Source: Alphaproteobacteria bacterium (GTDB taxonomy: Bacteria > Pseudomonadota > Alphaproteobacteria > Rhizobiales > Xanthobacteraceae). Taken from it: DNA of 57,993 nucleotides. The translations under genes and the position numbers were made by a program. The notes beneath the pieces are model-generated. The model was not told the DNA's origin, ran no database searches, and worked only from the letters and a program-made list of their open reading frames with translations. The stretch lies in NCBI GenBank assembly GCA_034668785.1, contig JAXDOS010000150.1, positions 1 to 57,993 on the forward strand, in the 5' to 3' direction. Numbering within the stretch: the first letter of the stretch is position 1; each line of letters opens with the position of its first letter. Below, piece after piece: positions 3,570 through 41,680 of this stretch.

Positions 3570-3573
3570 TCTT

Positions 3574-6077: not shown

Positions 6078-6085
6078 GAACCGAC

Positions 6086-12559: not shown

Positions 12560-12616
12560 TCGTAACGAATCCTTTGATTCTAAATCGACCGAAGTTTGGT
12601 TACACGACCGAGCGGG

Positions 12617-15225: not shown

Positions 15226-15290
15226 CTTGCACCGTTGCTCCCGCCCTCAGACTAAGACGCCGTTATGTCTGAATGTCTGTCGTCGGCAAG

Positions 15291-16978: not shown

Positions 16979-17055
16979 ATTACACCTCCACGGGAGTTGT
17001 TTGCAATTTTCTTTGGAAATGGGGAGTTAGCATCTAGACACAATTGGTAATACCG

Positions 17056-19113: not shown

Positions 19114-19488
19114 ATAGCTCTAGTCCTTCGCCTGCAGAACGAGGCCTTTTAGGGTGCGCCCCGAGAAGTTACAAGTTGATGATCGACGGGCGGGCGCTAG
19201 GTGTCGGTCCTTCATGCGCAATTCCACGCATGGGCGTGAGCTAGCTTTCGCTCACGCATTGAAAAAGATATATTGAGCGAACACGCAATGCCGCGAATTC
19301 AATAACATGATGCCACAATCACTCCATCATTGCCATCTTTTATGGGAGAGGTGACTTAAACGTATGCGCGGTCTAACGTCTCTAGGAGTTCGTGGAGGAA
19401 AATTCCCAGAACTTTAATCCGCTCACCATGCACGGTCGCACGCAGTCACGGCGTGATGTCAGATTGCGGCCTTGAAGAGGAGTTCGCC

Positions 19489-21000
19489 ATGGCTGGTTGG
19501 ACAGTTAACGGGAACGACACTAATTTTTCGCTGTCGGGCAAAGTCGGCATTGGGACAACTACCCCGGCTCGGAAGCTTGAGGTTTCCGGCGATGATGTGA
19601 AGATAAGGGTCACCAACACGGTGTCGTCAAATATGGTGGAGTTCGGCTGGGATACCGGCAATCTGGCTGCTCTTTTTCAGGCAACAAACGGGAGCGACAT
19701 CAAGTTCTATAATGGACAATATGCGCTTACGATGCTCGGTAGCAATGGCAACGTCGGCATCGGGACCGGGGCACCAAGCGCTCAGCTACACATCAATTTA
19801 CCAACCCCCGCCACGCCGACAAATGATGTGCGACTCATCCAAAGATTTACGAGACCCCAGGATGTCGGCACTAAATGGGGCGGGGCTTTCGATATACTCT
19901 TGGGCAGTTACGGTACGGACGCGGCATCCAGAAGTCGTGTTGATTTCAAACTAGCAAATACAGAAACTAATCTACCCGACACAACTGTAATAACCATGAA
20001 CGCTAATGGTCATGTCGGCATTGGGACGACGATACCGCAGTCTCTTCTCCATATTGAAGGTCCTGGTTCTGCGGGCGTTATCAACTACCCCGCTGTAGCA
20101 AAAGTCGTTCATGGAAGTTCCACAACTCCAATCACAAGCAGTGTGGGTTCTTCGTTCGCTGTGATTAGGGAAGAAGCTGTTCCAGGAGGTTTAGGTCAAG
20201 GTGATGCGGCCATCTACGCACAAAATATCGGGCATGGTGGGCAGGGCGGCGCACCCGGAGACGGGATGCCAGTTGGCGTTGCAGCGTATGTGTACACCGC
20301 TGCGGATGGCGAGAGTGATTGCACAGCTCTTGTAGGCGTGGCCCGCACGGATAGTGCGGCCAACAATGCTCGTGCGGCTTTTGGTGCGTTCGTTCAAGCA
20401 GAAGCCACCGTTGGAAACAACATGGGCGCGATTGCCTGTGAAAGCCAAACGGTCAACAGCACGGGATTTAATTACAGATATAGCCCAGCCCAACCTACGA
20501 CAAACCTGATGGTCGGCTTCGATATTGGTTATGGGGGTACGGGCGGCACGACCGGCAGCGCGGGTGTGATGCTGCGAGCCTCACCTGGTTTGTGGGATGT
20601 TGGTTATGCTGTGATGGAATCTACGGTTGCCACCGCTGCCTTCATATCCCCCGGGTTCAAGGTCGATGCCTTGGGCAATCAACGGGCCTTGAGTAATACA
20701 ACGACATCCGACGAGCGGCTTAAGCATGATATAGTGCCGCTTAATGATGGAGCGCTCGAGAAGATAGTTGGAATACAGCCGGTTTCATTTAGGTTCAACC
20801 AAGAGCGCGATCCTTCCGATCGTTTGAGGACGCATGTCATTGGACAAGACGTTCTTCCGGTAATACCGGAGGCAGTTGTCCTCGACTCAGATGGCTTCTA
20901 TTCGGTTGATGATGGCGCAATTTTGGCCTACGCGATCAAAGCTATTCAGGAACTTACAGCGAGAGTAAGGATGCTCGAAGCATCAAGGGGATTACAGTGA
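19489..21000 (+). CDS. phage tail-fibre-like protein with a C-terminal Peptidase_S74 intramolecular chaperone (autoproteolytic) domain
   Basis: The track ORF 19453..21000 is trimmed to the ATG at 19489, preceded by GAGGAG. The motif G(K/N/H)VGIGT..P....L(E/H)(V/I) recurs three times in the N-terminal part. The C-terminus reads TTTSDERLKHDIVPL...IQPVSFRFN...HVIGQDVLPVIPEAV...VDDGAILAYAIKAIQEL, which matches the endosialidase/T5-fibre chaperone domain (about 20707..20997). No signal peptide is visible. Confidence 0.7.
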   Translation: MAGWTVNGNDTNFSLSGKVGIGTTTPARKLEVSGDDVKIRVTNTVSSNMVEFGWDTGNLAALFQATNGSDIKFYNGQYALTMLGSNGNVGIGTGAPSAQLHINLPTPATPTNDVRLIQRFTRPQDVGTKWGGAFDILLGSYGTDAASRSRVDFKLANTETNLPDTTVITMNANGHVGIGTTIPQSLLHIEGPGSAGVINYPAVAKVVHGSSTTPITSSVGSSFAVIREEAVPGGLGQGDAAIYAQNIGHGGQGGAPGDGMPVGVAAYVYTAADGESDCTALVGVARTDSAANNARAAFGAFVQAEATVGNNMGAIACESQTVNSTGFNYRYSPAQPTTNLMVGFDIGYGGTGGTTGSAGVMLRASPGLWDVGYAVMESTVATAAFISPGFKVDALGNQRALSNTTTSDERLKHDIVPLNDGALEKIVGIQPVSFRFNQERDPSDRLRTHVIGQDVLPVIPEAVVLDSDGFYSVDDGAILAYAIKAIQELTARVRMLEASRGLQ

Positions 21001-21068
21001 CACCTTGGTCCATCGGCTGCGTTTCCAGAGCCGAATATATCTTAACGGTGCCGCCATCGGCGCGTGCC

Positions 21069-21860
21069 TCATCCGAGGTGGGAGGGCGCAATAATAATAA
21101 TGTTGGAACTAAAAGGTCCTAGGGGCAAACCGGCGTATCGAAGGGTGGGGCGAGACCCCAGAGGCCATTCGCGGGCCAATTGATTCTTGCTGACAAAATC
21201 CAAATTCTCGATCTTGCTCCAATGGTGATATCCGGTCCCAGCGAGCGCCTTTCGAAAAAGCTGCGGTATGTAATGCAGTAATGGAATTCCGGTGTGATGC
21301 TCGATCGGGAACCACCCATTCGGGACGATAACAAAAATGGAACGGGCTACACGCATTGCTTCGGAGAAAAAGAACAGGCGTTGATCGGGGCCTCCGACAT
21401 GCTCCAGGACGGCGTTGGAATAGGCGATGTCGAAATGTCTGTCAGAAAACGGCAGAGGTTGGCCAGGCGTAAGCTGGGCAACTTTCACCTTTGGATACTC
21501 GCGCGAAATACTCGATCCATCCCCGATGATCCCGCAAGTGATGTTCTCGGGATACGGATAATTTTTCTCGAGTATATTTGCCTCGCGGGTGTCGTGATCG
21601 GAGGCACCGATGTCAAGGATTGTTGTAGAAGACGTCGGCTTCATCTCCGCGACAAACCTTGCATAGATGCGGTTCCGGGCGACGAGTGCAAGGCGCCTCT
21701 GAAGCGCAATCTTGCCCGCCCCTTCGTAATAGATAACGTCTGACGCCTTGCTCATATTGACCGTTGTAAGCCACGTTATTTGCATGAGTCCAGCGCGTTT
21801 TAGATTGAATTGCTTCCCCGCAGTCACCCAACTCGTCCAAACCCCCATTCCTGAGAACAC
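21069..21860 (-). CDS. class I SAM-dependent methyltransferase (start uncertain; ATG at 21785 or 21755 more likely)
   Basis: It has TILDIGASDHD, HFDIAYSNAVLEHVGGPDQ and RSIFVIVPN (Methyltransf_11-like). The first 25-35 codons of the maximal ORF look non-coding. Confidence 0.7.
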   Translation of the reverse strand: MFSGMGVWTSWVTAGKQFNLKRAGLMQITWLTTVNMSKASDVIYYEGAGKIALQRRLALVARNRIYARFVAEMKPTSSTTILDIGASDHDTREANILEKNYPYPENITCGIIGDGSSISREYPKVKVAQLTPGQPLPFSDRHFDIAYSNAVLEHVGGPDQRLFFFSEAMRVARSIFVIVPNGWFPIEHHTGIPLLHYIPQLFRKALAGTGYHHWSKIENLDFVSKNQLAREWPLGSRPTLRYAGLPLGPFSSNIIIIAPSHLG

Positions 21861-21892
21861 GAATTCTTGCGAGATCGCGGCTTTACGGATAA

Positions 21893-23596
21893 TTGGACAT
21901 GCGCGCCGACATGTTGGCGGGTGGTGGTCGTAAGGGGGCAGTCATGGGCGTCGATAAAATTCTTGGCTGGCGGTTTCCGCGAGGCTGCATCCCTGTCATC
22001 ACGATTGCTGCATTCGTGCTGTCGGGTTGCGTATGGGTGCTACGAGACCAGAGGGTTTGGTCGTATGACCAGGCGTATTATGGTCACTGGACTCTTCAAC
22101 TGTGGCATGCGGCTCAGACCGGACCGGCGGAGTGGTTGGAGACGATGGCCAACGCCCTTGGACAGATGCCGCCAATGCTGGTGTGGCTCGGCCAGGGTGT
22201 CTTGCCGGTGCGATACATCACCGGAGACACCGAATCTGCGCTGCCGCTGCTGACAATCCTCCTCGCCGCCGCAACACTTGCCCTGGTCTATCTCCTCGCG
22301 CGCCGTCTCGGCGCTGGTCGAATCGGAAGCCTGGCCGCGGTCATTGCATGCGCGGGGAGCCCGCTCTTTCTTGCATTCTCGCTTCTCTATCTGACCGAGA
22401 TGGCCCAAGCATTTTCCGTGGCGGTCACGATCTTCGTGGCCTGGCGTGCCGAGCGGCGATCGCTAACGCGGACACTGGCATTGTGTTTGTCGGCAACAGC
22501 TCTTGGTTTTCTCGCCAAGTCATCAAGCATCGTATTCTTGGTGCCTGTGTTGACCTATGTCGCCGTGGCGCTTTTCATTTCACGGGGCCGGCCGAAGTCG
22601 CGCACCAGCATCGCCGACATCTTATTGGTTGCCATGGCTGTCATGCTCTTAGCCGCGACCGCGACTTGGTACGCATTCAACTGGGAATCCATGGTTCAGC
22701 ATTTCGTCGGGGCGACGACCGGAGAGATGGCGCTCAACTATGGCTCTCGGGTCGAGCTTATCAAAAAGTTGAACTACTGGATCAGCTGGCTGGATCTATC
22801 CTTGTCGCCGATTAATTATGTATCGATCTGCATCGGCGTCCTGATCGTTGTCGCCATCGGCGCCGCTCTTGTCAGAGTGTTCTTACATTCGCCGTCCCAG
22901 TGGGCGCTGGCTGCCGTCGAGAATGGTACCTTGTTTGGTCTCGCCTTAGCGGGAATGCTGGTTGTCGTTATTCTCGCCTATTCGCTCCAGATGAACGAAG
23001 ATCCGCGGTTTCTAGCTCCTGCCATGCCGGTGGTAGCCGCACTGATCGGGTGGAGCTTCTCCATGATCGGCAGCAGGCTGGTCGCCGCAGTTGCAGTCCT
23101 TGGGCTGGCGGCGAATGCGGTGGCTGTCCATGCCTATGCGCACAACATCAATCCGTTTGGTCTCACGGTCCATCCCTGGCTGTTGCCAGTGGATGCCGTG
23201 GGCGTCGATAAGGCGCTCCTGACGCATGCGGTCCGTAGCACCTGCCGGAAGGATACCGCAAATTACGCGACCGTCATCGCGGTGAACTACACTCCGCTCA
23301 ACGCAAATTCCGCTAGCTTCTATTCGTTCAAGCAACGCGAAACATTAGCATATTTCTGCAACTACAGAAGCTTGAGCTTCTCAGTGCCAGAGTTCCAGCG
23401 CGCGCTCGACGAAATAATCGCGATGGCGCCAGCCTACGTGGTGACGGTCGCGCCCGAAAAGCAGTCGCCCGGCGATTTCGCAAATATTCACTCTCGTGCG
23501 CTGGCCGAATATTTGGCTAAAGATCCGCTATTTGAGCTGTCGCCGGATTCCGGCGACTATCTGCAGATCTATCGCAACAAGCGGGTCTTGCCGTGA
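21893..23596 (+). CDS. GT-C fold membrane glycosyltransferase candidate (family 39/83-like, ArnT/PMT type)
   Basis: 567 aa with at least 10 hydrophobic segments. WSYDQAYYGHW lies in the first loop, in the position of the DE/DD catalytic motif of GT-C enzymes. The C-terminal soluble domain is about 150 aa. The start may be the internal ATG at 21944. Confidence 0.55.
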   Translation: MDMRADMLAGGGRKGAVMGVDKILGWRFPRGCIPVITIAAFVLSGCVWVLRDQRVWSYDQAYYGHWTLQLWHAAQTGPAEWLETMANALGQMPPMLVWLGQGVLPVRYITGDTESALPLLTILLAAATLALVYLLARRLGAGRIGSLAAVIACAGSPLFLAFSLLYLTEMAQAFSVAVTIFVAWRAERRSLTRTLALCLSATALGFLAKSSSIVFLVPVLTYVAVALFISRGRPKSRTSIADILLVAMAVMLLAATATWYAFNWESMVQHFVGATTGEMALNYGSRVELIKKLNYWISWLDLSLSPINYVSICIGVLIVVAIGAALVRVFLHSPSQWALAAVENGTLFGLALAGMLVVVILAYSLQMNEDPRFLAPAMPVVAALIGWSFSMIGSRLVAAVAVLGLAANAVAVHAYAHNINPFGLTVHPWLLPVDAVGVDKALLTHAVRSTCRKDTANYATVIAVNYTPLNANSASFYSFKQRETLAYFCNYRSLSFSVPEFQRALDEIIAMAPAYVVTVAPEKQSPGDFANIHSRALAEYLAKDPLFELSPDSGDYLQIYRNKRVLP

Positions 23597-23772
23597 TGGC
23601 GTTGCGCCTCATCGGCGTCGCGCAAGCCTTCGTCGTAACCCGTCGCGCAAACAGATCACAGGCAATCAGAAGTCGTCGGGATGGGTTTATGCCCCACCGG
23701 CGACCTCTCCGCGGCACCGCTGTTACAGATGCCTTGCTGAGGACGGTGCGCGCGCATCCTCCACCTACACGA

Positions 23773-24684
23773 TTACGACTTCCTTCGGCGGAGCACGAAG
23801 GCATCCTGCCAACCTCGCAACCCGCCCGCCTGGAAGGTTATCGTCTCAAATAGATCAGACCACAGCGGCTCTGCCTTGTCGGGAGCGATGAAGGTGTTTC
23901 CGTAATCGTCACCGACCTTCGCGGCTTCGAGAACGGCGCTTTCGTATGGAACGAAAATCAGGCGCTCGGTGCGCAGCCGATCAATGATCGCCTGCGTCGA
24001 AGTCGCGTTGAGACAGAACATTTCTTGGTGAGCCTTCGATGCCTTGATGATGTCGAGAGCCGTCGGACCGTGCGTGGTGATCACAAGAATTCCACCGGGA
24101 GTGATGACACGGGCCAAATCATCGAGCCAGGCCCGTGCCGCGTGTTCGGGAAGGTGGGAAAAAACCGATAGCGAATAGGCAAAATCGATTGAACCATCCA
24201 GCAGCGCGAGGGGCGGACGCGTGCTGTTGCACACCGATATGACGTTGGGGAGATGGTCGAAACACCAGGCAATATGGTCGGGGTTCACGTCGGCTCCGAT
24301 CGTGCTGTATCGTTGCGATAGGCCGAGATATCGCGTCAGCCTGCCGCATCCACAGCCGAAATCGAGCACGCGGCGCGGATATGGGAGCGATGTGTCACCA
24401 TGAATCTCATATAAGCCGATGAGATAAGTGACATCGACCGCGCCGGTCCAGAGGAATACTTCCTCTTCGGGCGCAGCGACAATCGATCGGAGAGCGAGAG
24501 GTGGAATTGCGGGAAGTAGACTTCGCAACCTGCCTTCACAACCCGCTCCGATTGAATGCAGCCACTCCGCCCGTTTCTCGGTTGGGACAATATATAAGGC
24601 TGTTCGCACGTCGGCCCGGCCGGTTGCGATCTCCTCAAGCGCTAACCTCATTTCATCTGATGTAATCGAATTCAGAAAATCCAT
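23773..24684 (-). CDS. class I SAM-dependent methyltransferase
   Basis: 303 aa. It has RVLDFGCGCGRLTRYL, IDFAYSLSVFSHLPE and ITPGGILVITTHG. Confidence 0.75.
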   Translation of the reverse strand: MDFLNSITSDEMRLALEEIATGRADVRTALYIVPTEKRAEWLHSIGAGCEGRLRSLLPAIPPLALRSIVAAPEEEVFLWTGAVDVTYLIGLYEIHGDTSLPYPRRVLDFGCGCGRLTRYLGLSQRYSTIGADVNPDHIAWCFDHLPNVISVCNSTRPPLALLDGSIDFAYSLSVFSHLPEHAARAWLDDLARVITPGGILVITTHGPTALDIIKASKAHQEMFCLNATSTQAIIDRLRTERLIFVPYESAVLEAAKVGDDYGNTFIAPDKAEPLWSDLFETITFQAGGLRGWQDAFVLRRRKS

Positions 24685-25194
24685 GCCGAGCCCTCGCTAA
24701 GCGTCACTTCGCCTTGCATGATAGAGCCGATGCTGGAGGGCTACCAGCGCTCGTAAGAGAAAATTCAACTAAGCTCCCCTTCGATTCGTCAGAATTGAGT
24801 GGCCGCACGAGCACCATTCGGAAAGTGGCCATTCAGCGGGCGCTTCTGACGTGCCAGAGTCAATTGTCGAACGGGTCGACTCGAACGCGTGCGACTATCG
24901 TAAATATCATGCGCCGGATCAGTTGCCGTCCCTGTGGAATTCCTTTCGTTCTGGCCATTGCGGAATGTCCGCGCCGGGGCTGCGCTTCCCTCCGGAGACG
25001 GATTTCAATGGCATGCGGAAACAGTGGTCCAATTAGGCTGGTCGTGCCATTGCGCAGCCAGGGAATATCAATATTCTCTCATTTGCGGCGGTAAGTCGGT
25101 CTCCCACAAGCACTTAGATAGGAAAATGCCGAACCCCCCTAATCGATGGCAACTATTTTTGACTATTCGAGCTTGGATTTTTTTGCGCCTGCGC

Positions 25195-25223
25195 TTCAAT
25201 AAGGCACTTATTGCCCCTACAAT
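25195..25223 (+). promoter_or_regulatory. candidate promoter upstream of the methyltransferase-coiled-coil gene
   Basis: TTCAAT (25195..25200), a 17-nt spacer, then TACAAT (25218..25223), inside a roughly 620-bp apparently non-coding, lower-GC gap. Pattern match only. Confidence 0.25.
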
Positions 25224-25310
25224 AGCTAAAGTTTGCAGCATCGGATATTTTGGGGCACTGGAGGATATGAGAAGTCGGCAACTTACGTCTGGTTTGGCGG
25301 CTGCTGTTAT

Positions 25311-26834
25311 ATGCGCTCAATTCTCAGTCGCCATATCGAAGCACCCAGGGCTACTTTCGTGATGTCGGCACGCGAAAAACGCGATCATGTTCCGCTCCCC
25401 GGGGATGGGTGTGGGCTTGAGCTAGAATATCCTGCACGTCTCGTCGAGCCGTCCGCCTGGTTGGCGCACGTACCCTTCGCCATGTGGCTGGTCGGCGCGC
25501 TCAAGCCGCGCATGATAGTCGAACTCGGCGTCCACACCGGCAATTCCTACTGCGCCTTTCTGCAAGCGGCGCAAACGCTGGGTCTCGATACGCGGTGTTT
25601 TGGCGTCGATCATTGGTATGGCGACGAACACGCCGGTCACTATGGAGATGAGATTTACCAAGAGTTCAGGGCCTACCACGATCGCCGATATGGGACCTTT
25701 TCCACCCTGCTTCGCAGTTCCTTTGAAGAGGCACTTCCATATTTCTCAGACGGCAGCGTCGACCTGCTCCATATCGACGGTTTTCACACTGCCGAAGCCG
25801 TTTCGGCGGACTTCAAGTCATGGTTCCCGAAAGTGAGTTCCCGCGGGGTCGCGCTGTTCCACGACAGTAACGTCCGGGAGCGCGGCTTCGGTATTTGGCA
25901 GTTTTGGGAGGAACTCTCATCCCGCTACCCGCATTTCGAGTTCCTCCACTCACACGGCCTTGGTGTTGTCTACCTAGGCACCGAGCCCTTGACCGGACCA
26001 CTTAAGGCGCTGTTTGCAACAAAGACTGATGCCGAAAATGAGCGCGTCCGTGGCTACTTCGCCCGGCTTGGAACTTCGGTCGCCGAACGTCGCGCGGGGT
26101 TGACGCTCGCCGCCAACGTCGATGCAACCAAAGGGCGGGTCGCGGAGCTGGAGAGGGAACTTGCGGCTGTCCGGGCAGAGTTGGCCAGGACCAACACAGA
26201 TACCGACGCGCTGAAGGCGGAATTAGAAGCAAAAATTCAGGCCGTGCAGTCGGATGCCGCGCGAGAACAAGCGCAGGCTGAGGCGGTCCGCGCGATGCTG
26301 GATCAGACTAAAAGGCAGCTTGCTGATTTGAATGCGCAACTTTCGAATGCTGGTGCGCTCACGGATGGCCTGGAGGCAAAACTTCACGCTGCCCAGGGCG
26401 AGGTGGCACGCGCAAATTCCAATGCAGCCGCGCTTAAGAAGAATCTGGAGGAGAAGCTTCACGCCGCTCAAGATGAGGTGGCACGCGCATATTCCAGTGC
26501 CGACGCATTTAAGAAGGACCTGGAGGAGAAGCTTCACGCCGCTCAAGGCGAGGCGGCACGCGCTCATTCCAGTGCCGACGCGGTCAAAAATGAGCTAGAG
26601 GCAAAACTTCGTGCCGCCACTTTGCAGTTACAGATACAGGCCTCCCTGGTACGTCAGCGCATTGGAGTAGCTGCTCGGCTGCAACAAGAATTGCTCGTGG
26701 CCAAAAGCGACAAATGCTCTTACGAACTGCGGCTTCAAGAAATTCTGCAATCGACAACCTGGCGGTATACCGGACCTTTTCGCCGAGCAGTCATCTTGCT
26801 GAGACGTTTGCTCCCGCCGAATCCGCTATTTTAA
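25311..26834 (+). CDS. class I methyltransferase (Methyltransf_24/CmcI-like) fused to a long C-terminal coiled coil
   Basis: The track ORF 25233..26834 probably starts at ATG 25311 or 25362. The N-terminal domain has MIVELGVHTGNSYCAF, GVDHW, VDLLHIDGFHTAEAV and GVALFHD. From about residue 290 onward the sequence is Ala/Glu/Lys/Leu-rich with heptad character and includes 25-aa repeats. The C-terminus reads STTWRYTGPFRRAVILLRRLLP. Confidence 0.75.
   Translation: MRSILSRHIEAPRATFVMSAREKRDHVPLPGDGCGLELEYPARLVEPSAWLAHVPFAMWLVGALKPRMIVELGVHTGNSYCAFLQAAQTLGLDTRCFGVDHWYGDEHAGHYGDEIYQEFRAYHDRRYGTFSTLLRSSFEEALPYFSDGSVDLLHIDGFHTAEAVSADFKSWFPKVSSRGVALFHDSNVRERGFGIWQFWEELSSRYPHFEFLHSHGLGVVYLGTEPLTGPLKALFATKTDAENERVRGYFARLGTSVAERRAGLTLAANVDATKGRVAELERELAAVRAELARTNTDTDALKAELEAKIQAVQSDAAREQAQAEAVRAMLDQTKRQLADLNAQLSNAGALTDGLEAKLHAAQGEVARANSNAAALKKNLEEKLHAAQDEVARAYSSADAFKKDLEEKLHAAQGEAARAHSSADAVKNELEAKLRAATLQLQIQASLVRQRIGVAARLQQELLVAKSDKCSYELRLQEILQSTTWRYTGPFRRAVILLRRLLPPNPLF
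26370..26618 (+). repeat. in-frame 75-bp tandem repeat, 3 full copies plus a partial fourth, inside the coiled-coil region
   Basis: Copies start at 26370, 26445 and 26520, with a partial copy from 26595. They encode LEAKLHAAQGEVARANSNAAALKKN / LEEKLHAAQDEVARAYSSADAFKKD / LEEKLHAAQGEAARAHSSADAVKNE / LEAKLRAA. Copies 2 and 3 are nearly identical at the DNA level over the first roughly 45 nt. Confidence 0.9.
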
Positions 26835-27167
26835 ATACCAAGTGAGTTAGCGGACAAGTATACCCATACTCTTCACTTAGTGAGCGATGGAATGTCACGC
26901 GGATTCGTTCGCGGATATCGTTCGAAACTGCTTCTATTCTCAATTATCGGACTAATACACCAAGCCTCCGGGTACTTTAATTATCAACTTACGCGTGTTG
27001 AACGCAACTCAATGGAGAAAATTTGCGATTTTATCCTAGCCATGCTGACACGAACCCGTTACCTTCGGCGCGCTATACAGCCTCGTCGGGGGAGAATCGG
27101 AGGCTTCGAACAATCGCAAAATGCTCTCTCGCCAAAAACATTACAACCCAAGATAAAGGAGACGGCC

Positions 27168-28109
27168 ATGCGTAAGTTTATGTTGCCAGTGACTCTGCTC
27201 GGTTTACTGTTCGTTGCAGTTCACGCGACGCCGGCGCAAGCGCAGGCGACGCGTACGTGGGTTTCGGGCGTGGGCGACGACGTCAATCCGTGCAGCCGCA
27301 CGGCACCATGCAAGACATTTGCCGGCGCAATCTCGAAGACGGCCGTAAATGGCGAGATCGACGTCCTTGACCCCGGCGGCTACGGCACCGTCACCATCAC
27401 CAAATCGATCACGATTAACGGCGGCGGGTACGGCTCCGGCTTCGGTTCTATTCTTGCTGCCGGCACGGTGGGCGTCATTGTCAACATCGCCGCTGGGGAC
27501 GTTCGCAAGGTAGTGCGTCTCGTAAATCTCGACATCAATGGCGCGGCGACAGGAACGATTGGCGTTAGAATTCTGTCTAGCAATCCTGCTGGCAGCATTG
27601 TTACCGTGGAAAACACCGTCATTGATGGCTTCACCGGCAGGGGAATCTCTGACGAGCGCACTGCTGGCGGCAAGTTGGTCGTAACCAATACGTCCATCAG
27701 CCATACAGTCGGCTCGGGAATCCAGGTTGCCCCTGTGGGTACGAAGATCGACGCTGCGATCAACAATGTGCGCGTGTACAATTCCGGCGCCGCCGGGTTG
27801 ACCGTCAATGGCGGAGGCAAGGCCATGGTCAACAACTCGGTGTTCTCGGGCAGTAATTTCGGCCTCGACATCGAAGGCGCCGGCAGCGAGGCAAACGTCG
27901 ACAACAGCGTGGTGAGCAGCAACGCCACCGGCATCCTCACGACGGCCGGAGCGACTCTCCGGCTGTCCAACACCGACGTTGCCTTCAACGGAACGGGCGT
28001 GAATGGAACAGTGAATTCATTCTCGAACAACCGGTTCTCAAGCAACGGCGCAGGCGGAACGATAACCCCGATTGGTACTTTGAACACCAACCCCTCGGGT
28101 CAGCAGTAA
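27168..28109 (+). CDS. secreted right-handed parallel beta-helix repeat protein
   Basis: The track ORF 26880..28109 is trimmed to the ATG at 27168, preceded by AAGGAG. The signal peptide is MRKFMLPVTLLGLLFVAVHATPAQA. The mature N-terminus is TRTWVSGVGDDVNPCSRTAPCKTFAGAI. It is followed by many short repeats rich in G, N, V, T and I, such as VxNxxxxG and IxxxxGxxxVxN. Confidence 0.7.
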   Translation: MRKFMLPVTLLGLLFVAVHATPAQAQATRTWVSGVGDDVNPCSRTAPCKTFAGAISKTAVNGEIDVLDPGGYGTVTITKSITINGGGYGSGFGSILAAGTVGVIVNIAAGDVRKVVRLVNLDINGAATGTIGVRILSSNPAGSIVTVENTVIDGFTGRGISDERTAGGKLVVTNTSISHTVGSGIQVAPVGTKIDAAINNVRVYNSGAAGLTVNGGGKAMVNNSVFSGSNFGLDIEGAGSEANVDNSVVSSNATGILTTAGATLRLSNTDVAFNGTGVNGTVNSFSNNRFSSNGAGGTITPIGTLNTNPSGQQ

Positions 28110-28130
28110 TCTGATCCGATAACGATCCAA

Positions 28131-28181
28131 GGCCATTTGCCCCCTCGTCTCAGACAAAGAGGCGGGGGGGGATAATTTTTT
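28131..28181 (+). terminator. possible intrinsic terminator after the beta-helix gene (overlaps the 3' end of the convergent GT gene)
   Basis: An imperfect GC hairpin gccccctc-gtctcagacaaa-gaggcggggg is followed by gataatttttt. The stem has a mismatch and the T-run lies within the opposite-strand coding sequence. Confidence 0.3.
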
Positions 28182-29133
28182 GCACTTGTCGCCTGAAGCG
28201 AGCGGTCCACTTCTGATTTCTTTTTGCCCAATTCATAACAGTCTCATCGATCGAGAAAACACCGTCGCGAATGAGTTCCTGCGCGCGGGCGGGCGTCACG
28301 AACTGGTTTTCGTAGTCTTCCCGCAGCCGGCCTTCCTGCTTCAAGCGGATCCAGCGGCGCCAGTGCCAGCCCCACCAAGCCTCAAGGTGCTTATTTTCGT
28401 CCAGCCAAATCGTGAAGTTGCGAACTTTAGTATCGAAGGCGTCGAATCCGCGGATGGGGTAATGCAGGAAATGCAGTTGCGAAGCTTCTCCGATTTTCCC
28501 CGCCGAACTCGCAGCCGAATGCGCCCCCGGCCCGTATTCGACAAAACTTGAGGTGCGAACGATAGTTTTTGGTGGATGCCCAATAAAAATATACGGAACT
28601 GGTAGATTGCCTGACAGCTGTTGCTCGTAGGTCTCTTTGACTGTTCGGTCGATCCGGAGGTTAAAATTCTGCGGAGCGCTATCGCCCGGCTTCAGCGGCG
28701 GCCCCGTCATATTGAAACAGCCGACGTTCAATACCGTCAAATCTTGTTTCTCTGCCTCCTCCAGGAGACCTCTCACGCTATTTTCTTGTGTGCAAAGAAA
28801 CTCGTCGGTATCGCATAAAATTACCCAGTCGGCGTTATATTCATCTCGCGCACGCCGCGTGAGCTCGGCAGATGGATCGTAGTGCTTGATGTTCTTTTTT
28901 CGATTCAGCTCCCATTTCAGGAGCTTTCTTTTGGCAAATTGCTCGAGAATATCTTGGCTTCCGTCAGACGAACCGGAATCATAAGCAAGTATAAAATCGA
29001 CACCCAACGACAAATACCAACTGATATATTCATGTAGAATGTCGGCGTTATCAAGGACGTTAACAGCCAACACGATCCTGGCAGGGCGCATGCAACGAAC
29101 CTTAAGGAGATACCATAAATCGTCGTCCGGCAT
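28150..29133 (-). CDS. glycosyltransferase (GT2 / Glyco_tranf_2_4-like, DxD type)
   Basis: 327 aa. It has RIVLAVNVLDNADILHEYISWYLSLGVDFILAYDSGSSDGS and ILCDTDEF (DxD). An alternative start is ATG at 29091. A hand-counted 60-nt sample at 28861..28920 gave about 47% GC. Confidence 0.6.
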   Translation of the reverse strand: MPDDDLWYLLKVRCMRPARIVLAVNVLDNADILHEYISWYLSLGVDFILAYDSGSSDGSQDILEQFAKRKLLKWELNRKKNIKHYDPSAELTRRARDEYNADWVILCDTDEFLCTQENSVRGLLEEAEKQDLTVLNVGCFNMTGPPLKPGDSAPQNFNLRIDRTVKETYEQQLSGNLPVPYIFIGHPPKTIVRTSSFVEYGPGAHSAASSAGKIGEASQLHFLHYPIRGFDAFDTKVRNFTIWLDENKHLEAWWGWHWRRWIRLKQEGRLREDYENQFVTPARAQELIRDGVFSIDETVMNWAKRNQKWTARFRRQVQKIIPPRLFV

Positions 29134-29186
29134 ACCATTGCAATTTGTCTTTTACAATCTAACAAACATCTCAGCTGAGGACCGTC

Positions 29187-30116
29187 GTGGAGGCCGATAA
29201 AGCGCACGAGATGAGTGGATACCAGCATTATACCTACGCCCAATCATTAGCGGAGTTCGGCACTCCACGGCTTCTGCCGCGAAGCGGCGGCTGGATGCTG
29301 CAGCGCCCGATCGACGAACTTCCCTACAGCGACGCCATGGGTTGTTATCCGCTGTTTGCCTGTGCCGACTGGTCTGGGATTCAGGCCGACCTTGATGAGC
29401 TTACGGACGAGCTCGTGTGTATTTCATTGGTTGCGGATCCATTTGGAGGCTACCGCCGTGAAGACCTGCAAAGATGGTTCAAAGATAAGCTCCTACCCTT
29501 CAAAGAACATTTCGTTGCCGATCTAAGCCGTCCGCCGGATGAATTCGTCTCCAAGCATCATCGTTACTATTCACAGCGCGCGCTTGGCGCTGTTGATGTT
29601 GAGCGATGCAATCAGCCGGCGCAATTCCTGGAAGAATGGTTGAACCTCTACGCGCAGATCACCGAACGACATCGGCTCAAGGGCATCAGGGCTTTTTCCC
29701 GACGTGCATTTGAGATGCAGTTGAACGTGCCGGGCGCGTTCATGCTCCGGGCGATCCATGAGGGAGAAACCGTGAGCGCGCACCTTTGGTATCTGCAAGG
29801 CGGTGTCGCCTACAGCCACCTTGCCGCCAGTAACCCACGTGGCTATGAATTAATGGCTCCTTACGCGCTCCACTGGTTTGCGCTCAAGACGTTTGCCGGC
29901 AAGGCCGGCTGGATCAACTTTGGCGGAGGAGCAGGTCTAAATGGACAGGCCACGGACGGCCTGACACTGTTCAAAAGGGGCTGGTCTACGGAAACACGCA
30001 CTGCTTACTTTTGCGGCCGCATTTTCAACCAGAAAAGGTACGCCGAAGCGCTCGCAAAGCGACGACTAGCGGCAAACGACTACTTTCCTGCCTATCGGAA
30101 GGGTGAACTCATTTGA
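29187..30116 (+). CDS. FemAB-like / GNAT-superfamily acyl (aminoacyl) transferase candidate
   Basis: 309 aa. The two-lobed layout and the C-terminal HLWYLQGGVAYSHLAASNPRGYELMAPYALHW...FGGGAG resemble the Acetyltransf_6/FemAB fold. The assignment is by resemblance only. Confidence 0.45.
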   Translation: MEADKAHEMSGYQHYTYAQSLAEFGTPRLLPRSGGWMLQRPIDELPYSDAMGCYPLFACADWSGIQADLDELTDELVCISLVADPFGGYRREDLQRWFKDKLLPFKEHFVADLSRPPDEFVSKHHRYYSQRALGAVDVERCNQPAQFLEEWLNLYAQITERHRLKGIRAFSRRAFEMQLNVPGAFMLRAIHEGETVSAHLWYLQGGVAYSHLAASNPRGYELMAPYALHWFALKTFAGKAGWINFGGGAGLNGQATDGLTLFKRGWSTETRTAYFCGRIFNQKRYAEALAKRRLAANDYFPAYRKGELI

Positions 30117-30251
30117 GCTTACGTTTCCGGATGAAATATTGCATCTTGGTTTGTTTTCGATCATGAGAATATGCGGCAAAGCTCGACATATTGCCGTCCA
30201 ACGATAGTGCGGAAGCCTCACGGCGGCGACACCAGCTATCATGAAAATGCG

Positions 30252-31253
30252 ATGACACGCGAAATTTCAAAGGCAGAATCCGGTATGCGAGACCGTAAAC
30301 TGCGCTTTTCGTACGTCGTGTCGATCCAAATCATCATCGTTTTGGCATTACTTGTGATCGCGGAGATAGCACTCCGGGTGCTCGATCTGCCGATGATACG
30401 CTTACCGCCAAGCGACAGAATATGGGGTTTCCGTCACGATCCGGATCTCGGCTGGAGCCTGCCCCCCCACAACGCTCGTCAGGTCACGGTGACGCGTACG
30501 GTTTCCATGCGCAGCAACAGCCTTGGCTTACGCGATGCCGAACTTGCTCCCGGCACCGGGCCAACCATTCTCTTTCTCGGCGATTCCTTTACCGAGGGAT
30601 TCGATGTAGAACCCGAGGAACGGTTCAGCGACCGCCTCCGTGGCAACTTGCCAGCAGTGCGGATCCTTAATGCCGGCGTGACCGGCTATGGCACCGATCA
30701 GGAATATCTCCAGCTTCAGCGTTTGTGGCCGCGCGTGGAACCGACCGTGGTCGTCCTGATGTTTTGTGTGGACAATGACCGCGAGGACAATAGTTCCAAC
30801 TACCGGTATTTTGCATTTAAGCCCTACCTGACCAACGTCGGGGGCCAGTGGCAATTCCGGGGGCAGCCGGTGCCGATATCGCCTCAAATACTTTTCAATG
30901 AAAACTGGTTCGCATTAAACTTCGCGACTGTTCGTCTCACGATCGTTGCATATTCGTCGATCAGTAACGACCACGTGTCGGTGCCTGACCCCACTGAACG
31001 GTTAATTGCGATGATGCGTGATCTCGTGGAAGCACACGGCGCCAAGTTCCTGGTCGGCCTGCAACGCCAGGAGCCCTCATTGGAAGCGTTTCTGAGCTCG
31101 CAAAAAATTCCGTATACCCGCTTCGACGAAGCTGAGAAATATCCCACCTGGGGCAGTCACTGGACCCCAGCTGGACACACCTTGGTGGCCGCGCGCCTAC
31201 TGACTTTGTTGGCGAAGGAGGGCGCTGTTCCTGCCGTCACAGAAGGCCGATAG
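30252..31253 (+). CDS. membrane-anchored SGNH/GDSL hydrolase family protein (possible polysaccharide O-acyl esterase/transferase)
   Basis: The track ORF 30171..31253 is trimmed to the ATG at 30252. It has one N-terminal TM segment (VVSIQIIIVLALLVIAEIAL). Block I is ILFLGDSFTEG, block III is NAGVTGYGTDQE, and the C-terminus has a HW.P.GH block V-like motif. Confidence 0.65.
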   Translation: MTREISKAESGMRDRKLRFSYVVSIQIIIVLALLVIAEIALRVLDLPMIRLPPSDRIWGFRHDPDLGWSLPPHNARQVTVTRTVSMRSNSLGLRDAELAPGTGPTILFLGDSFTEGFDVEPEERFSDRLRGNLPAVRILNAGVTGYGTDQEYLQLQRLWPRVEPTVVVLMFCVDNDREDNSSNYRYFAFKPYLTNVGGQWQFRGQPVPISPQILFNENWFALNFATVRLTIVAYSSISNDHVSVPDPTERLIAMMRDLVEAHGAKFLVGLQRQEPSLEAFLSSQKIPYTRFDEAEKYPTWGSHWTPAGHTLVAARLLTLLAKEGAVPAVTEGR

Positions 31254-31351
31254 GCATCGCGTTTCAAGAGACAACGATCGTGCATGCCTCGGAATTTGGG
31301 GTGTTAAGAACAGATTCAATCTGATTTAATCCGCGCCAGCGGGAAAGCAGA

Positions 31352-32032
31352 ATGGCGAAAATCGTTGTTTTCGGGGCGAGCCAGTGGGCGGAGTTAGCTC
31401 ACTTCTATTTCACTCATGACTCTTCGCATGAGGTCGTCGCGTTCACGCTCGATCGCAACTACCTCGATCGCGAATCCTTTCGCGGACTGCCGGTCGTGTC
31501 GTTCGACGAGGTAGAAAAGCATTATCCGCCGGATCGGTTTCAAATGTTTATCCCGCTCAGCTTCAAGAAAATGAACCACGTCCGCGCCGACAAATACCAC
31601 GATGCAAGACGACGAGGTTACGAACTCGTCAGCTATGTCAGCTCCAAAGCCACCACGTGGCCGGATTTCAAGTGCGGACAAAATTGCTTCATCTTCGAAG
31701 ACAACACGATCCAGCCCTTCGTCGAAATCGGGAATAACGTCGTGATGTGGAGCGGCAACCACATCGGCCATCACACCACGATCAAAGATCACGTGATGAT
31801 CACGTCCCACGTGGTTATTTCCGGTTGTTGCACAATCGAGGAGCACTGCTTTTTCGGTGTGAATTCCACGGTTCGCGACGAAGCCGTCATTGCCCGGGAA
31901 ACATTGGTGGGTATGGGGGTCACCATCGCCAAAGATACCAAAGAGTTTGAGGTTTACCGGGCGCCAGCAATCGAGCCGGAACGCATCCGTAGCGACCAAT
32001 TGCGCAGCCTCTCGTACAAGTCCAAAGGATAA
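31352..32032 (+). CDS. NeuD/PglD-family hexapeptide-repeat sugar N/O-acetyltransferase
   Basis: 226 aa. The N-terminal Rossmann-like segment is KIVVFGASQWAELAHFYF. The C-terminal left-handed beta-helix repeats read IGNNVVMWSGNHIGHHTTIKDHVMITSHVVISGCCTIEEHCFFGVNSTV. Confidence 0.8.
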   Translation: MAKIVVFGASQWAELAHFYFTHDSSHEVVAFTLDRNYLDRESFRGLPVVSFDEVEKHYPPDRFQMFIPLSFKKMNHVRADKYHDARRRGYELVSYVSSKATTWPDFKCGQNCFIFEDNTIQPFVEIGNNVVMWSGNHIGHHTTIKDHVMITSHVVISGCCTIEEHCFFGVNSTVRDEAVIARETLVGMGVTIAKDTKEFEVYRAPAIEPERIRSDQLRSLSYKSKG

Positions 32033-32039
32033 GGTCTTA

Positions 32040-33014
32040 ATGCGGTGGGAGAAGAAAGGGCTGATTTTCAAGACAGACAATAATTACCCGTGGATGTTGC
32101 ATCACGCCTGCGTCCCGATCGCGGAAAAGGTCGACGACAATGTTTTGAGAATCTATTTCGGGCCGCGCGATCGGGAAGAGCGAACGGTAACGACCTTCAT
32201 CGAAGTTGAAGCCGACAATCCCGCCCGCCTACTCTACGTTCACGACCGGCCGGTGCTCTCTTTGGGGCAGCTCGGTGCTTTCGACGACAGCGGCGCCATG
32301 CCGTCCTGTATCGTCAACCACGACGGCAAAAAATATCTTTTCTATATCGGTTGGAATCGCGGCGTAACGGTGCCCTACCGCAACTCCATCGGGCTCGCTG
32401 TAAGTATCGACGGCGGATTGACCTTCGAGCGCGTGTTCGAAGGACCGATCGTTGACCGTACAAGTCTTGAGCCGTACTTTTGCGCCTCTCCCTTCGCCAT
32501 GATTGACGAAGGAAAATGGAAGCTCTGGTATGCCTCGGTGACGAGCTTTCTCGAGGTGAACGGGAAGCCGGAGCCCGTATACCAGGTCAAGTACGCCGAG
32601 TCGGCAGATGGCCGCGAGTGGGCTAGGCCCAACCTCACCTGCCTCCGCTATTTGTTCGACGGTGAAGCCAACGCACGTCCCTGCGTCATCAAGGAAAGGG
32701 GCATCTATCGGATGTGGTACTGCTTCCGCGGCAGCGTCAACTACCGGACGGATAAGGCACAAAGCTACCGTATCGGCTATGCCGAGTCGGCAGATGGCAC
32801 TCGCTGGGAACGGATGGACGACCGGGTCGGTATCGACCGTGCAGAGGAGGGCTGGGACTCGGTTATGATCGAGTACCCATTCGTTTATGAACACCGCGGC
32901 GTGAAACACATGCTTTACAACGGAAATGGCTTCGGTGAGAGCGGTTTTGGCTACGCCGTACTTGTCGAGGACGATCGATCTGGACTAGTGACCTCGAGAG
33001 TCGGTGCCCTCTGA
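32040..33014 (+). CDS. five-bladed beta-propeller (GH43/32/68-like superfamily) protein of unknown role
   Basis: The track ORF 31890..33014 is trimmed to the ATG at 32040 (MRWEKKGLIFK...). It has GAFDDSGAMPS, SIGLAVSIDGGLTFER, KLWY, YAESADG.EW (twice) and YRMWY, which are recurring blade motifs. The last 30 nt overlap the convergent FkbM gene. Confidence 0.45.
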   Translation: MRWEKKGLIFKTDNNYPWMLHHACVPIAEKVDDNVLRIYFGPRDREERTVTTFIEVEADNPARLLYVHDRPVLSLGQLGAFDDSGAMPSCIVNHDGKKYLFYIGWNRGVTVPYRNSIGLAVSIDGGLTFERVFEGPIVDRTSLEPYFCASPFAMIDEGKWKLWYASVTSFLEVNGKPEPVYQVKYAESADGREWARPNLTCLRYLFDGEANARPCVIKERGIYRMWYCFRGSVNYRTDKAQSYRIGYAESADGTRWERMDDRVGIDRAEEGWDSVMIEYPFVYEHRGVKHMLYNGNGFGESGFGYAVLVEDDRSGLVTSRVGAL

Positions 33015-34043
33015 AGCAATTGCATACATAACCGTTTCTTCTGCATGGAGCGAATAATGTTCAAGATACATTTTGTAAAAAGGATAGCGTAGTTTCAACT
33101 CGTAGGGGATCGTCCAAAGATCGGAAGGCTTGTGGTAAAGACAGACAGCTAATTTCGGTTTGAACCTTGTAATGGTCTCGCTAGCCCCTTCCAGGGCCTC
33201 TGCTTCTGACCCCTCGATGTCCATTTTGATATAGTCGACGGAATTGAGCCCCCTAAGGCGACAGAAATCGTCAATTGATATTGCGGCATCAGTGACGCTG
33301 AGCGGGCGTCCCGGTGACGCGATTAGAGTCTCTTCCGCTTGGCCGGAAACATCCTCAATGGCAGCAGAAGCGCTCGGTTTACTCGTCCTTGAAACTCCGC
33401 AAGAAAATATCTCTATTCTGTCATCAAGATGATTCCGGGCCACGCTCTCTCTGGCAATCATTGCGTGGCTTCTGACGGGATCGAAACTGTAAATCTTGCC
33501 CGTTACTCCGGTATATGTAGCGAATTTGATCGCGGTATCTCCTACGAAAGACCCGCAATCTAGAATCACGTCGCCTTCCGCCGGTCCGATGACGGTGTCG
33601 CCACGGCGAAAATGATATTGGTCAGATATCAATGTCCAATAGAGCCCATATTTGGTCGTAACGATCTGTACGGGAATGTTGTTGTAATGGACCGACCAGA
33701 CCGCCATCGACTCGCCGAGAATGTTGATGTCGGTAGGCAGCACCTCGGCAGAAAAGTTGTCTCGCATAAAGGCTTCAAGAGCATTGAACATTTGCTCGTT
33801 ATTGGCGACGTGAGACAAATGTGGAGTCAAATACCGGTATACGAGCAGGTCTTTAAAAATCGCCCTGCTCGCTTTATCTGCAAACGCATAATATCCTCTC
33901 GCAACAGCGGCTCCATTTTTGAGAAGAGCTGCGATATCGCGGGTCTTTCGCCGATAGTCGAAGGCGAGATCTCTCAGCGGCGACCGCTGGGCCATCTGAA
34001 AGGCAGGCGGCTCTGTCACGAATCGGTATCGATCAACGTGCAT
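32985..34043 (-). CDS. FkbM-family methyltransferase
   Basis: The track ORF 32985..34199 is trimmed to MHVDRYRF at 34043; an alternative start is 33995. It has VILDCGSFVGDTAIKFA, KIYSFDP, FSCGVS and IKMDIEGSEAEAL, which are Methyltransf_21 hallmarks. Confidence 0.75.
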   Translation of the reverse strand: MHVDRYRFVTEPPAFQMAQRSPLRDLAFDYRRKTRDIAALLKNGAAVARGYYAFADKASRAIFKDLLVYRYLTPHLSHVANNEQMFNALEAFMRDNFSAEVLPTDINILGESMAVWSVHYNNIPVQIVTTKYGLYWTLISDQYHFRRGDTVIGPAEGDVILDCGSFVGDTAIKFATYTGVTGKIYSFDPVRSHAMIARESVARNHLDDRIEIFSCGVSRTSKPSASAAIEDVSGQAEETLIASPGRPLSVTDAAISIDDFCRLRGLNSVDYIKMDIEGSEAEALEGASETITRFKPKLAVCLYHKPSDLWTIPYELKLRYPFYKMYLEHYSLHAEETVMYAIASEGTDSRGH

Positions 34044-34185
34044 GGCTTCCGGAGCAAACTCTTGCCGTATAGTGGTAACGGCTGGCGAGGAAGTGGCCTC
34101 AGTTGTACTGTACTTGCAGCAGACGGGGGCTTCGGTCAACGTTGAACTGCGGCTGCGCCGGATGGCGATCGTTGTCCGGCGCGGC

Positions 34186-34258
34186 GGCGTGAAACACATG
34201 TTTTATAACGGGAATGGCTGCGGGTTGGCATCGGCTATGCCGTGCTGACTGAAGAGGG
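34186..34258 (+). pseudogene. decayed duplicate of the 3' end of the 32040..33014 beta-propeller gene
   Basis: ggcgtgaaacacatgttttataacgggaatggctgcgg... aligns by eye with 32898.. ggcgtgaaacacatgctttacaacggaaatggcttcgg. That gives GVKHMFYNGNG versus GVKHMLYNGNG. After an indel/frameshift it gives FGIGYAVLTEE versus FGYAVLVED. Confidence 0.55.
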
Positions 34259-34303
34259 GCCGAGCGGTCAGTTGAGGTTCGGAAATTTCCGCCGGGACGA
34301 AGT

Positions 34304-35927: not shown

Positions 35928-35944
35928 CACCAGGACGAACCTGC

Positions 35945-37048: not shown

Positions 37049-37359
37049 ACTCTACCCATTCCCGGAAGACATCGGAATAGCCGTGAGGAATGACCGCATA
37101 GCGTAATTCCAGCCGTCTATGGCAGCCAAGTTACAAATTGCCGTCGTTTCCCGAGGCGATCATATTACCCCTACGCTCTGACGACGCATTCCCTTTTTTA
37201 GTTGGCTGAAACCGAACTTCGAGGGGCTCGGCGAGTGGTGCAAATCTGACTAGGCGATAGTTGTCCTGCGGCCAAGCGACCGAGGCCAGCCTCACGTCCC
37301 ACGAGCTTTATCAACGAGCGCCACGCTTACCATGCCGGATTCACATTTCTGGAACTTAG

Positions 37360-40567: not shown

Positions 40568-40840
40568 GTTTCCGCTAAATTAGGACGCTCTCCCTCCAAT
40601 GTAAAAGCAAAAGCGCCAGAAGTGGTCGGCGCGGGTTCCCGCATCATGACATCGTCACGATGTGGGAACCAGGCGCGGTCCGGCGGTCCATGTCGGCCAC
40701 TCGCCTTGCAAAACGGCCTCGATTAGGCCAGTACATAATGCAAAGCCTAAAGGAAACGATTATCTGGATCGAACCCGCAACTTACGTAATTAAGCCTGAT
40801 TAACGCAGGTTTATAGCCCTTCCAGCAGGACCCCAAACAC

Positions 40841-41674: not shown

Positions 41675-41680
41675 GGACAG

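Follow-up and report, generated by a model that had tools for sequence, protein, structure and literature searches.

The ruler model for the length control of surface glycans is based on few enterobacterial prototypes. WbdD is an extended parallel trimer (PMC5082667), and insertions or truncations in its coil move the modal chain length (PMC3482155, PMC5082667, PMC11231755); a form without a kinase is known from Escherichia coli O8 (PMC3482155). The Klebsiella pneumoniae proteins O12 WbbB and O7 ORF6 have a fused terminator-coil-polymerase layout, and coiled-coil terminators are already regarded as a widespread pathway marker (PMC11231755). Here we describe a gene from the surface-sugar cluster of a soil bacterium (Xanthobacteraceae; contig JAXDOS010000150.1, analysed over 57,993 nucleotides, which we call the window and to which all coordinates refer unless a locus is named). 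The gene (25362..26834, + strand, boundaries from homologue alignment) encodes a 490-amino-acid (aa) protein made of a methyltransferase head, a long helical stalk and a short basic tail. We consider it moderately probable that the product is a stand-alone WbdD-like chain terminator of an ABC-transporter-dependent surface glycan, probably an O-antigen. A first-pass annotation of the same DNA had proposed a terminator and molecular ruler at this position, and sequence comparison has strengthened this proposal yet not proven it: cap-binding modules in neighbouring Wzt proteins of related loci, fused relatives, a motif shared with WbdD and length changes confined to the coil speak for it, and the missing cap-binding module in the window and a competing RfbT-like enzyme speak against it. 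The finding is also less novel than that annotation implied, because coiled-coil terminators already count as widespread (PMC11231755).

The open reading frame runs from 25233 to the stop at 26834 (+), and we took the gene as 25362..26834 because 12 aligned homologues begin at the methionine encoded at 25362 (MSAREK...). The nearest relative, P0001, which is 98% identical and comes from an alphaproteobacterial metagenome-assembled genome, has the same start. The start at 25311 given by the first-pass annotation would add 17 unconserved residues, and this start and another in-frame one at 25233 are possible but without homologue backing. Pfam analysis showed that, apart from Methyltransf_24, all matches of the protein were to coiled-coil families, and NCBIfam gave weak matches only, far under the family cut-offs and mostly to SMC-/Rad50-type coiled-coil proteins, on the stalk. 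No kinase domain was found in the 490-aa protein by the Pfam scan, and a glycosyltransferase domain was likewise absent, which means that the protein is not of the fused WbbB/O7 ORF6 type. The AlphaFold2 monomer model, built with 121 homologues, had a mean predicted local distance difference test score (pLDDT) of 83.7.

The head (aa 1-222, 25362..26027, +; delimited by Pfam, AlphaFold2 and Foldseek) is an S-adenosylmethionine (SAM)-dependent, catechol-O-methyltransferase-like class I methyltransferase. Its Methyltransf_24 match (PF13578; 25518..25865, +) scored 85 bits (E = 7.8e-24) against a cut-off of 26.3, and the motifs ELGVHTGNSY, VDLLHIDGFHT and ALFHD, from which the class had been proposed, are all present. 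AlphaFold2 predicted a Rossmann fold up to about aa 222 with pLDDT mostly above 90. Foldseek grouped the head with metal-dependent O-methyltransferases of the catechol-O-methyltransferase-like kind, and its best matches were Mycolicibacterium hassiacum MeT1, Rv0187, SafC and catechol O-methyltransferase (E about 1e-8 to 1e-9). The top match, MeT1 (6G7D/6G80, E = 4e-9, about 20% identity), resembles the head most closely in structure and weakly in sequence, and it methylates a sugar hydroxyl of a polysaccharide; it differs in having neither coil nor tail, and it reportedly acts on the reducing end of the methylmannose polysaccharide. A PDB sequence search with the head gave only weak matches, to CmcI and MeT1. 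Across 121 homologues the invariant residues include D83, H106, D134, H137, D139, H167 and H196, a pattern that fits a putative metal- and SAM-binding site. Homology of the head to the WbdD methyltransferase/kinase was considered and rejected, with no sequence, family-profile or BLASTP match in the head and no WbdD chain among its PDB sequence or family-profile matches at E ≤ 1. The earlier statement that the methyltransferase belongs to a different family and has no kinase thus agrees with these results.

The stalk (aa 223-463, 26028..26750, +) is a predicted coiled coil, based on its periodicity, the AlphaFold2 model and the coiled-coil family matches. It comprises about 241 residues, close to the roughly 230 heptad-like residues first reported, and proline is absent from aa 214-471, a stretch of 258 aa. 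Residues 246-460 consist of 23% Ala, 13% Leu, 10% Glu and 8% Gln. The hydrophobic period was 3.55 residues, and none of 1000 shuffles reached the observed power. AlphaFold2 placed helices at aa 223-337, 345-463 and 465-483. The 25-residue tandem repeats that had been read from the translation were recovered by Tandem Repeats Finder as a 75-bp unit in 3.3 copies (26369..26617, 80-83% matches, score 288-295); the repeat region as we delimit it (26370..26621, +) holds three full copies and a partial fourth, the full ones at aa 337-361, 362-386 and 387-411, with 57-64 of 75 nucleotides identical between copies. Core positions 1, 5, 8, 12, 15, 19 and 22 of each unit give three heptads plus a 4-residue stutter. 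We infer that the stalk oligomerises into a coiled coil. If continuous, it would be about 36 nm long (about 0.15 nm per residue), compared with about 20 nm in WbdD, and it is the only long coiled coil encoded in the glycan cluster.

The stalk ends in a conserved module (aa 419-475, ATLQLQ...RLQQELL...LQSTTWRYTGPFRR; 26616..26786, +), which was defined by homologue alignment and a profile and closes with S-x-S/T-W-R-x-T-x-P-x-R (the SWR motif). The core TWRYTGPFR lies at 26757..26783, and the motif occurs once in the window. The family-wide coil end reads ...RLQRELL...LQS-x-S-W-R-x-T-x-P-x-R followed by basic residues, with alternative basic tails in other members. The basic, hydrophobic tail seen in the first reading was found again as an amphipathic C-terminal segment (26763..26831, +; hydrophobic moment and AlphaFold2), a candidate in-plane membrane anchor, and aa 468-485 (RYTGPFRRAVILLRRLLP) form the most amphipathic 18-mer of the protein, with a hydrophobic moment of 0.56 and a net charge of +5.

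The same motif is present in WbdD. E. coli HS (O9) WbdD has HRSRSWRMTKGYR at aa 590-602, and BLASTP of the window protein against it aligned only the coil end, LQSTTWRYTGPFR with HRSRSWRMTKGYR. A tail profile built from the Methyltransf_24 family only matched O9 WbdD at aa 559-606 with 27.1 bits, against 9.6 bits for the best of 5000 shuffles. In a second O9-family WbdD allele the motif region was identical and the coil upstream differed. In WbdD the motif position is the end of a trimeric coiled coil of about 200 Å, and the C-terminal region that holds it binds the membrane and recruits WbdA (PMC3482155, PMC5082667, PMC11231755). Because the coil-end motif is shared, we read the window protein as a different head on a WbdD-related chassis. 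The description of this protein as architecturally different does not stand, since it has the same head-coil-tail layout and the same coil-end motif as WbdD.

The relatives of the head were then compared by their neighbours. A protein search gave 525 relatives of 300-711 aa. A scan of species-representative genomes yielded 80 loci, spread over Alpha-, Beta- and Gammaproteobacteria, Acidobacteriota, Chloroflexota, cyanobacteria and further groups, and these loci were in turn searched with the proteins of the window. Wzt was encoded within 10 kb in 42 of the 80 loci, and in 28 of them it was long (410-571 aa, plus one over-long call of 829 aa); all nine long Wzt proteins examined carried the cap-binding module Wzt_C. 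The methyltransferase gene starts immediately after wzt in many loci, and heads 50-56% identical to that of the window directly follow wzt genes with Wzt_C. The same head-coil-SWR-tail layout stands right after a Wzt_C-bearing Wzt in L015, L016, L022, L043 and L066 (Lysobacteraceae, Thermomonas, Pelovirga). The head is also often the N-terminal part of proteins of 1000-1700 aa, in which a spacer of several hundred residues is followed by GT2, GT4, RgpF or WsaF_C; such fusions with glycosyltransferase modules are found in L006, L011, L027, L039, L052 and L059. The two published hallmarks of capped-glycan ABC-transporter systems, a coiled-coil terminator and a Wzt with the cap-binding module, thus go together with this head in many lineages.

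Five orthologues allowed a closer comparison of the stalk. Their heads are 95-98% and their tails 82-99% identical to those of the window protein, and the coil of P0001 has the same length, while the other four proteins are 11, 36, 47 and 69 residues shorter and have all their indels in the coil. Exactly one 25-aa repeat and one segment of 11 residues are among the parts lost. In the family as a whole, the spacer from the head motif to the SWR motif ranges from 85 to 358 aa. This variation fits a tunable ruler, and relaxed constraint would account for it equally well.

Like WbdD of E. coli O9a/O9 (= K. pneumoniae O3; methyltransferase-only in E. coli O8 = K. pneumoniae O5), the window protein consists of a stand-alone N-terminal enzyme, a long coil and a non-catalytic C-terminal region; both have S-x-S-W-R-x-T at the coil end followed by a basic hydrophobic segment, and both come from clusters with wzm-wzt and a multi-module GT4, which in the window is a putative polymerase. 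The wzm gene (ABC-2 permease, 40841..41674, +), wzt (252 aa, 41681..42439, +) and the two-module GT4, a candidate polymerase (37360..39597 or ..39669, −; conserved in L001), were assigned by Pfam, in agreement with the first-pass annotation. The similarity of this GT4 to WbdA is only of the generic GT4 type (E = 2e-6). The differences from WbdD are a head of the Methyltransf_24/catechol-O-methyltransferase-like type without a kinase, a stalk of about 240 rather than about 130 residues, 24 rather than about 110 residues after the motif, a gene that is not adjacent to wzt, and a 252-aa Wzt without the cap-binding module, compared with 431 aa in O9. K. pneumoniae O7 ORF6 and O12 WbbB also carry the terminating head distally on a coiled coil, and the fused relatives of the window head match this layout (PMC11231755). 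O7 ORF6 differs in its methyltransferase and in having a kinase as well as a carbohydrate-binding module of its own, in WbbB the terminating enzyme is a Kdo transferase, and the window protein has no glycosyltransferase module. In the K. pneumoniae O2a type, Wzt is without a cap-binding module and the chains are uncapped. The short Wzt is common to this type and the window, but no coiled-coil terminator is known from O2a, whereas the window cluster and at least 14 related loci have one. Pseudomonas aeruginosa PA5457/PA5459, likewise methyltransferases from an ABC-transporter-dependent O-antigen locus, have no coil or anchoring region and no WbdD-like length regulation (PMC3560663). Vibrio cholerae RfbT/WbeT, from another such locus, is not known to have a coil, an anchoring region or a WbdD-like effect on length, and export in V. 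cholerae is not known to depend on the terminal methyl group.

From this comparison a mechanism can be proposed. The tail and the coil-end motif would hold the base of the stalk at the cytoplasmic membrane, beside the two-module GT4 and/or Wzm-Wzt, and the head would stand off from the membrane by as much as about 36 nm. Growth of the lipid-linked chain would proceed at its non-reducing end until the chain reaches the head, which would O-methylate the terminal sugar, with no further extension. Because only a chain long enough to reach the head would be capped, the length of the coil would define how long a chain can become, and this limit would be retuned when segments of 25 or 11 aa are gained or lost. 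With no cap-binding module in this Wzt, the cap probably does not gate export, and termination would limit the length without being an export checkpoint.

The missing module counts against this proposal. According to published work, all terminated examples have a cap-binding module (PMC11231755). As had been noticed from the sequence, the window Wzt is without it: the protein is 252 aa long and has ABC_tran, the nucleotide-binding domain, as its only domain, and Pfam scans of 57 open reading frames of the window found no Wzt_C. A hidden Markov model (HMM) made from nine Wzt_C domains had no match in the window, read in all six frames, or in 15 related short-Wzt loci over distances of up to 10 kb; because this model detected only 18 of the 28 long-Wzt loci, a divergent cap-binding module could be missed. 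The window is not alone in this respect. At least 14 of the 42 Wzt-bearing loci have a short Wzt (234-351 aa), including the Wzt proteins closest to that of the window, and in L078 (Chloroflexia) wzm, wzt (266 aa) and the methyltransferase-coil gene form a tight operon. When the head sequences were compared, 32 of 42 had a nearest neighbour with the same Wzt type (permutation p = 0.0075), and the window head grouped with the short-Wzt loci. Either this lineage breaks the rule that termination implies the module, or it does not terminate.

Other results also count against a terminator with a ruler. The gene does not share a transcription unit with the putative GT4 polymerase or with wzm-wzt, from which it is about 10.5 kb and about 14 kb distant, and L002, whose head is 96% identical, has a different set of glycosyltransferases. 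The window holds eight other methyltransferase domains (1371-2102, 2109-3569, 13663-15225, 15291-16157, 21069-21860, 23773-24684, 32985-34199 and 34304-35116), the number given by the first-pass annotation. One of these, the FkbM methyltransferase at 34304..35116 (+), passes the Pfam model V_cholerae_RfbT with 33.8 bits and is a rival capping enzyme; RfbT represents the family of the Ogawa terminal perosamine 2-O-methyltransferase. A rigid link between head and base would make spacer lengths cluster at multiples of about 3.5-3.65 residues, and the helical phase was not conserved in 61 unique spacers (85-358 aa), with a coherence of 0.21 compared with a shuffle mean of 0.22. The AlphaFold monomer also breaks the stalk at aa 338-344, with low confidence, into arms of 115 and 119 residues, and a hairpin at this place would return the head towards the tail.

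Some of these observations would be explained if the protein were a decorating methyltransferase for internal or side-chain sugars, with the coil and tail serving only to oligomerise it and recruit it to the membrane complex, and with the balance of polymerase and exporter setting the chain length. We judge this to be rather unlikely. No cap-binding module was found in Wzt or elsewhere in the window, as this explanation would have it, and the many methyltransferases of the cluster suggest a heavily methylated glycan. The SWR motif occurs on many polymerising GT2 and GT4 proteins, so the motif alone is no terminator marker and may belong to a general assembly module. The methyltransferases of the P. 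aeruginosa common polysaccharide antigen do not regulate length as WbdD does, but these enzymes are without the coil and C-terminal domains (PMC3560663) that the window protein has. Moreover, a head at the far end of a 13-53 nm stalk would be badly placed for residues added at the membrane, selection has kept head and tail while the coil length varies, and the 50-56% identical heads either adjoin a Wzt_C-bearing Wzt or sit distally in methyltransferase-coil-glycosyltransferase fusions.

The mid-stalk break suggests another possibility, in which the stalk is an antiparallel hairpin or other scaffold that places the head near the tail and the membrane, and the protein is a structural or enzymatic subunit of the polymerase complex, with a stalk length that has no metric role. 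The nearly equal arms, a Gly/Asn cluster at aa 329-336, the Ala-rich core of the repeats and the spacer lengths without helical-phase constraint fit this arrangement, but monomer predictions commonly fold long helices back, and WbdD, which shares the motif, is an extended parallel trimer (PMC5082667). The orthologues also disagree with a hairpin: in P0003, P0004 and P0005 the putative hinge is partly deleted (aa 322-331), and the indels do not affect both arms to the same degree; P0002, for example, loses its 11 residues from the first arm only. We consider the hairpin improbable. The chance that the protein serves another ABC-exported glycan, such as a capsule-like polymer, an S-layer or protein-linked glycan or a glycolipid, unrelated to the O-antigen length of lipopolysaccharide, appears to us smaller still. 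In its favour, the Pfam scans of the window's open reading frames revealed neither an O-antigen ligase nor an initiating transferase, and the family is also present in Chloroflexia, Dehalococcoidia, Clostridia and cyanobacteria, in which the product cannot in every case be a classical O-antigen; yet the cluster has the usual O-antigen make-up of gmd, a DegT aminotransferase, several glycosyltransferases and wzm-wzt, and such a change would rename the polymer and leave the proposed mechanism as it is. A WbdD-like terminator remains the reading we prefer.

The distribution of the coil-end motif leads to a wider and more tentative proposal. The tail profile was searched against 1.84 billion representative proteins without a word index, which gave 3370 clusters at E ≤ 0.001; against a word-indexed database of 5.8 billion proteins it gave five short fragments only, the module being too short for the E-values of that search. 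The top match, P0126 (2022 aa, 29 stretches), was a repetitive artefact without the SWR motif and was excluded. Pfam sampling of the 60 longest of 150 listed matches found GT2 (19), Methyltransf_23 (11; in the sample it outnumbered the class I methyltransferase models that overlap with it, Methyltransf_12/11/25), GT4 (8), Methyltransf_24 (6), RgpF (3) and FkbM (3), with one each of TylF, WbsX, teichoic-acid-type Glyphos_transf and TupA-like ATP-grasp. The recurring families among these 60 were almost all glycosyltransferases and methyltransferases, and the motif itself is covered by no Pfam family. In multi-domain proteins the motif lies at the junction of the coil and the next module, and at other loci the coil and motif also follow sulfotransferase-like, Methyltransf_23/11 and FkbM+GT4 heads. 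In the best-scoring profile matches inspected, the motif was on terminator heads of several chemistries and on polymerising glycosyltransferases, and WbdD has it too. The motif may be an unannotated, near-universal base module of cytoplasmic glycan-assembly machines that docks at the membrane or a common partner, combined in this lineage with a ruler terminator and a module-less Wzt, where capping would limit length without an export checkpoint; we offer this joint proposal as a possibility that we do not regard as the likelier outcome.

Single loci show the motif in further settings. In the Bradyrhizobium-like L003, three different proteins end in a coil plus S-x-S-W-R-x-T-x-P-x-R (3672-5336, 10001-11263 and 11401-14589): a 554-aa protein of no recognised type, a Methyltransf_24 protein and an FkbM-methyltransferase+GT4 protein. 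This trio suggests that several heads dock through one shared module. P0136 (1513 aa) and P0139 (1346 aa) have two or three tandem SWR copies between the N-terminal head/coil and the C-terminal glycosyltransferase modules, and in P0136 every copy is paired with a conserved ...NPTTHYLQHGHLEGR segment.

The control of surface-glycan length has a bearing on serum resistance, phage sensitivity, symbiosis and vaccine design. The locus and its relatives would add Methyltransf_24, which is very widespread, as a second family of terminator heads on a chassis like that of WbdD, and the orthologue series, which differs only in stalk length (11-69 residues), suits a test of the ruler outside E. coli. The recurrent pairing with a module-less Wzt lets one ask whether termination and export gating uncouple; if true, capping without an export checkpoint would contradict the current rule that terminated systems always have a cap-binding module. 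With the shared coil-end motif there is a concrete candidate, open to mutation, for what holds the base of the ruler in place, an element not defined so far. Our literature search found no work pairing "Methyltransf_24" with "O-antigen"; the 2019 terminator census (Mann, Kimber and Whitfield, Glycobiology) was outside this search. Publications on Azospirillum O-polysaccharides contained only circumstantial mentions of 2-O- and 3-O-methyl-D-rhamnose. Three features go beyond the prototypes, namely the catechol-O-methyltransferase-like head family, its repeated occurrence with a module-less Wzt, and a motif shared with WbdD and thousands of glycan enzymes, and some of this may already be described.

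The glycan cluster covers about 284..42439 of the window, and panB at 42498, followed by aromatic-catabolism genes, marks its end. It contains gmd, sugar-nucleotide enzymes, a PMT_2 GT-C, a DegT aminotransferase, a hexapeptide acyltransferase, PhyH, two FkbM methyltransferases, a GT2, and two pairs each made of a GT2 with a methyltransferase domain and an LPG_synthase_TM protein. The RfbT-like gene together with gmd (284..1363), the DegT gene (35945..37048) and the hexapeptide acyltransferase gene (31352..32032) hints at a perosamine-type sugar.

Directly after the methyltransferase-coil gene lies a gene for a secreted right-handed beta-helix protein of about 313 aa with a signal peptide (...HATPAQA) (27168..28109, +; fold from an AlphaFold model). 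The same order was found in five related loci whose other genes differ (L001 11806-12576, L002 11612-12553, L086 11588-12553, L087 6124-7089 and L088 1673-2617), and a functional link between the two proteins is possible. Soil metagenomes contain at least 8000 members of the beta-helix family. In its AlphaFold model (pLDDT 80) the window protein is similar to PL6 alginate lyase, the AlgE4/AlgG epimerases and phage tailspikes. It may be an enzyme that acts on the glycan in the periplasm or outside the cell.

Between the beta-helix and DegT genes the cluster is a mosaic. The window has GT92-like, GNAT/FemAB-like, GDSL and hexapeptide transferase genes, an unassigned open reading frame, two FkbM methyltransferase genes and PhyH there (28150..35927), and L001, whose terminator candidate is 98% identical, has ATP-grasp, epimerase, metallophosphatase, TylF methyltransferase and TOD1-like genes instead (12811..17319). 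This looks like a serotype-style exchange of cassettes around a conserved core.

Several other parts of the window are worth mention. At 19453..21860, a 515-aa protein with a C-terminal Peptidase_S74 domain (endosialidase/tail-fibre chaperone) and a Methyltransf_11 protein are encoded between the genes of a 685-aa membrane protein and the PMT_2 protein, and both genes are absent from this place in L001; a phage-tail-fibre-like domain within a glycan cluster is unusual. The two GT2/LPG_synthase_TM pairs, the PMT_2 GT-C and the 685-aa polytopic protein, which has no Pfam match (2109..4632, 12617..15225, 17056..19113 and 21893..23596), look like modules for modification of the glycan in the periplasm after its export. 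At 4935..8483, a SIS isomerase, a HAD phosphatase, a transaldolase-like protein, a nucleotidyltransferase and a GHMP kinase are encoded together, a set that resembles a pathway for an unusual nucleotide-activated heptose or ketose. Outside the glycan cluster, two paralogous LigXa-like Rieske oxygenases (47090..48376 and 54687..55970, −) occur with an IclR regulator, an amidohydrolase and an HpcH aldolase in the aromatic-catabolism region.

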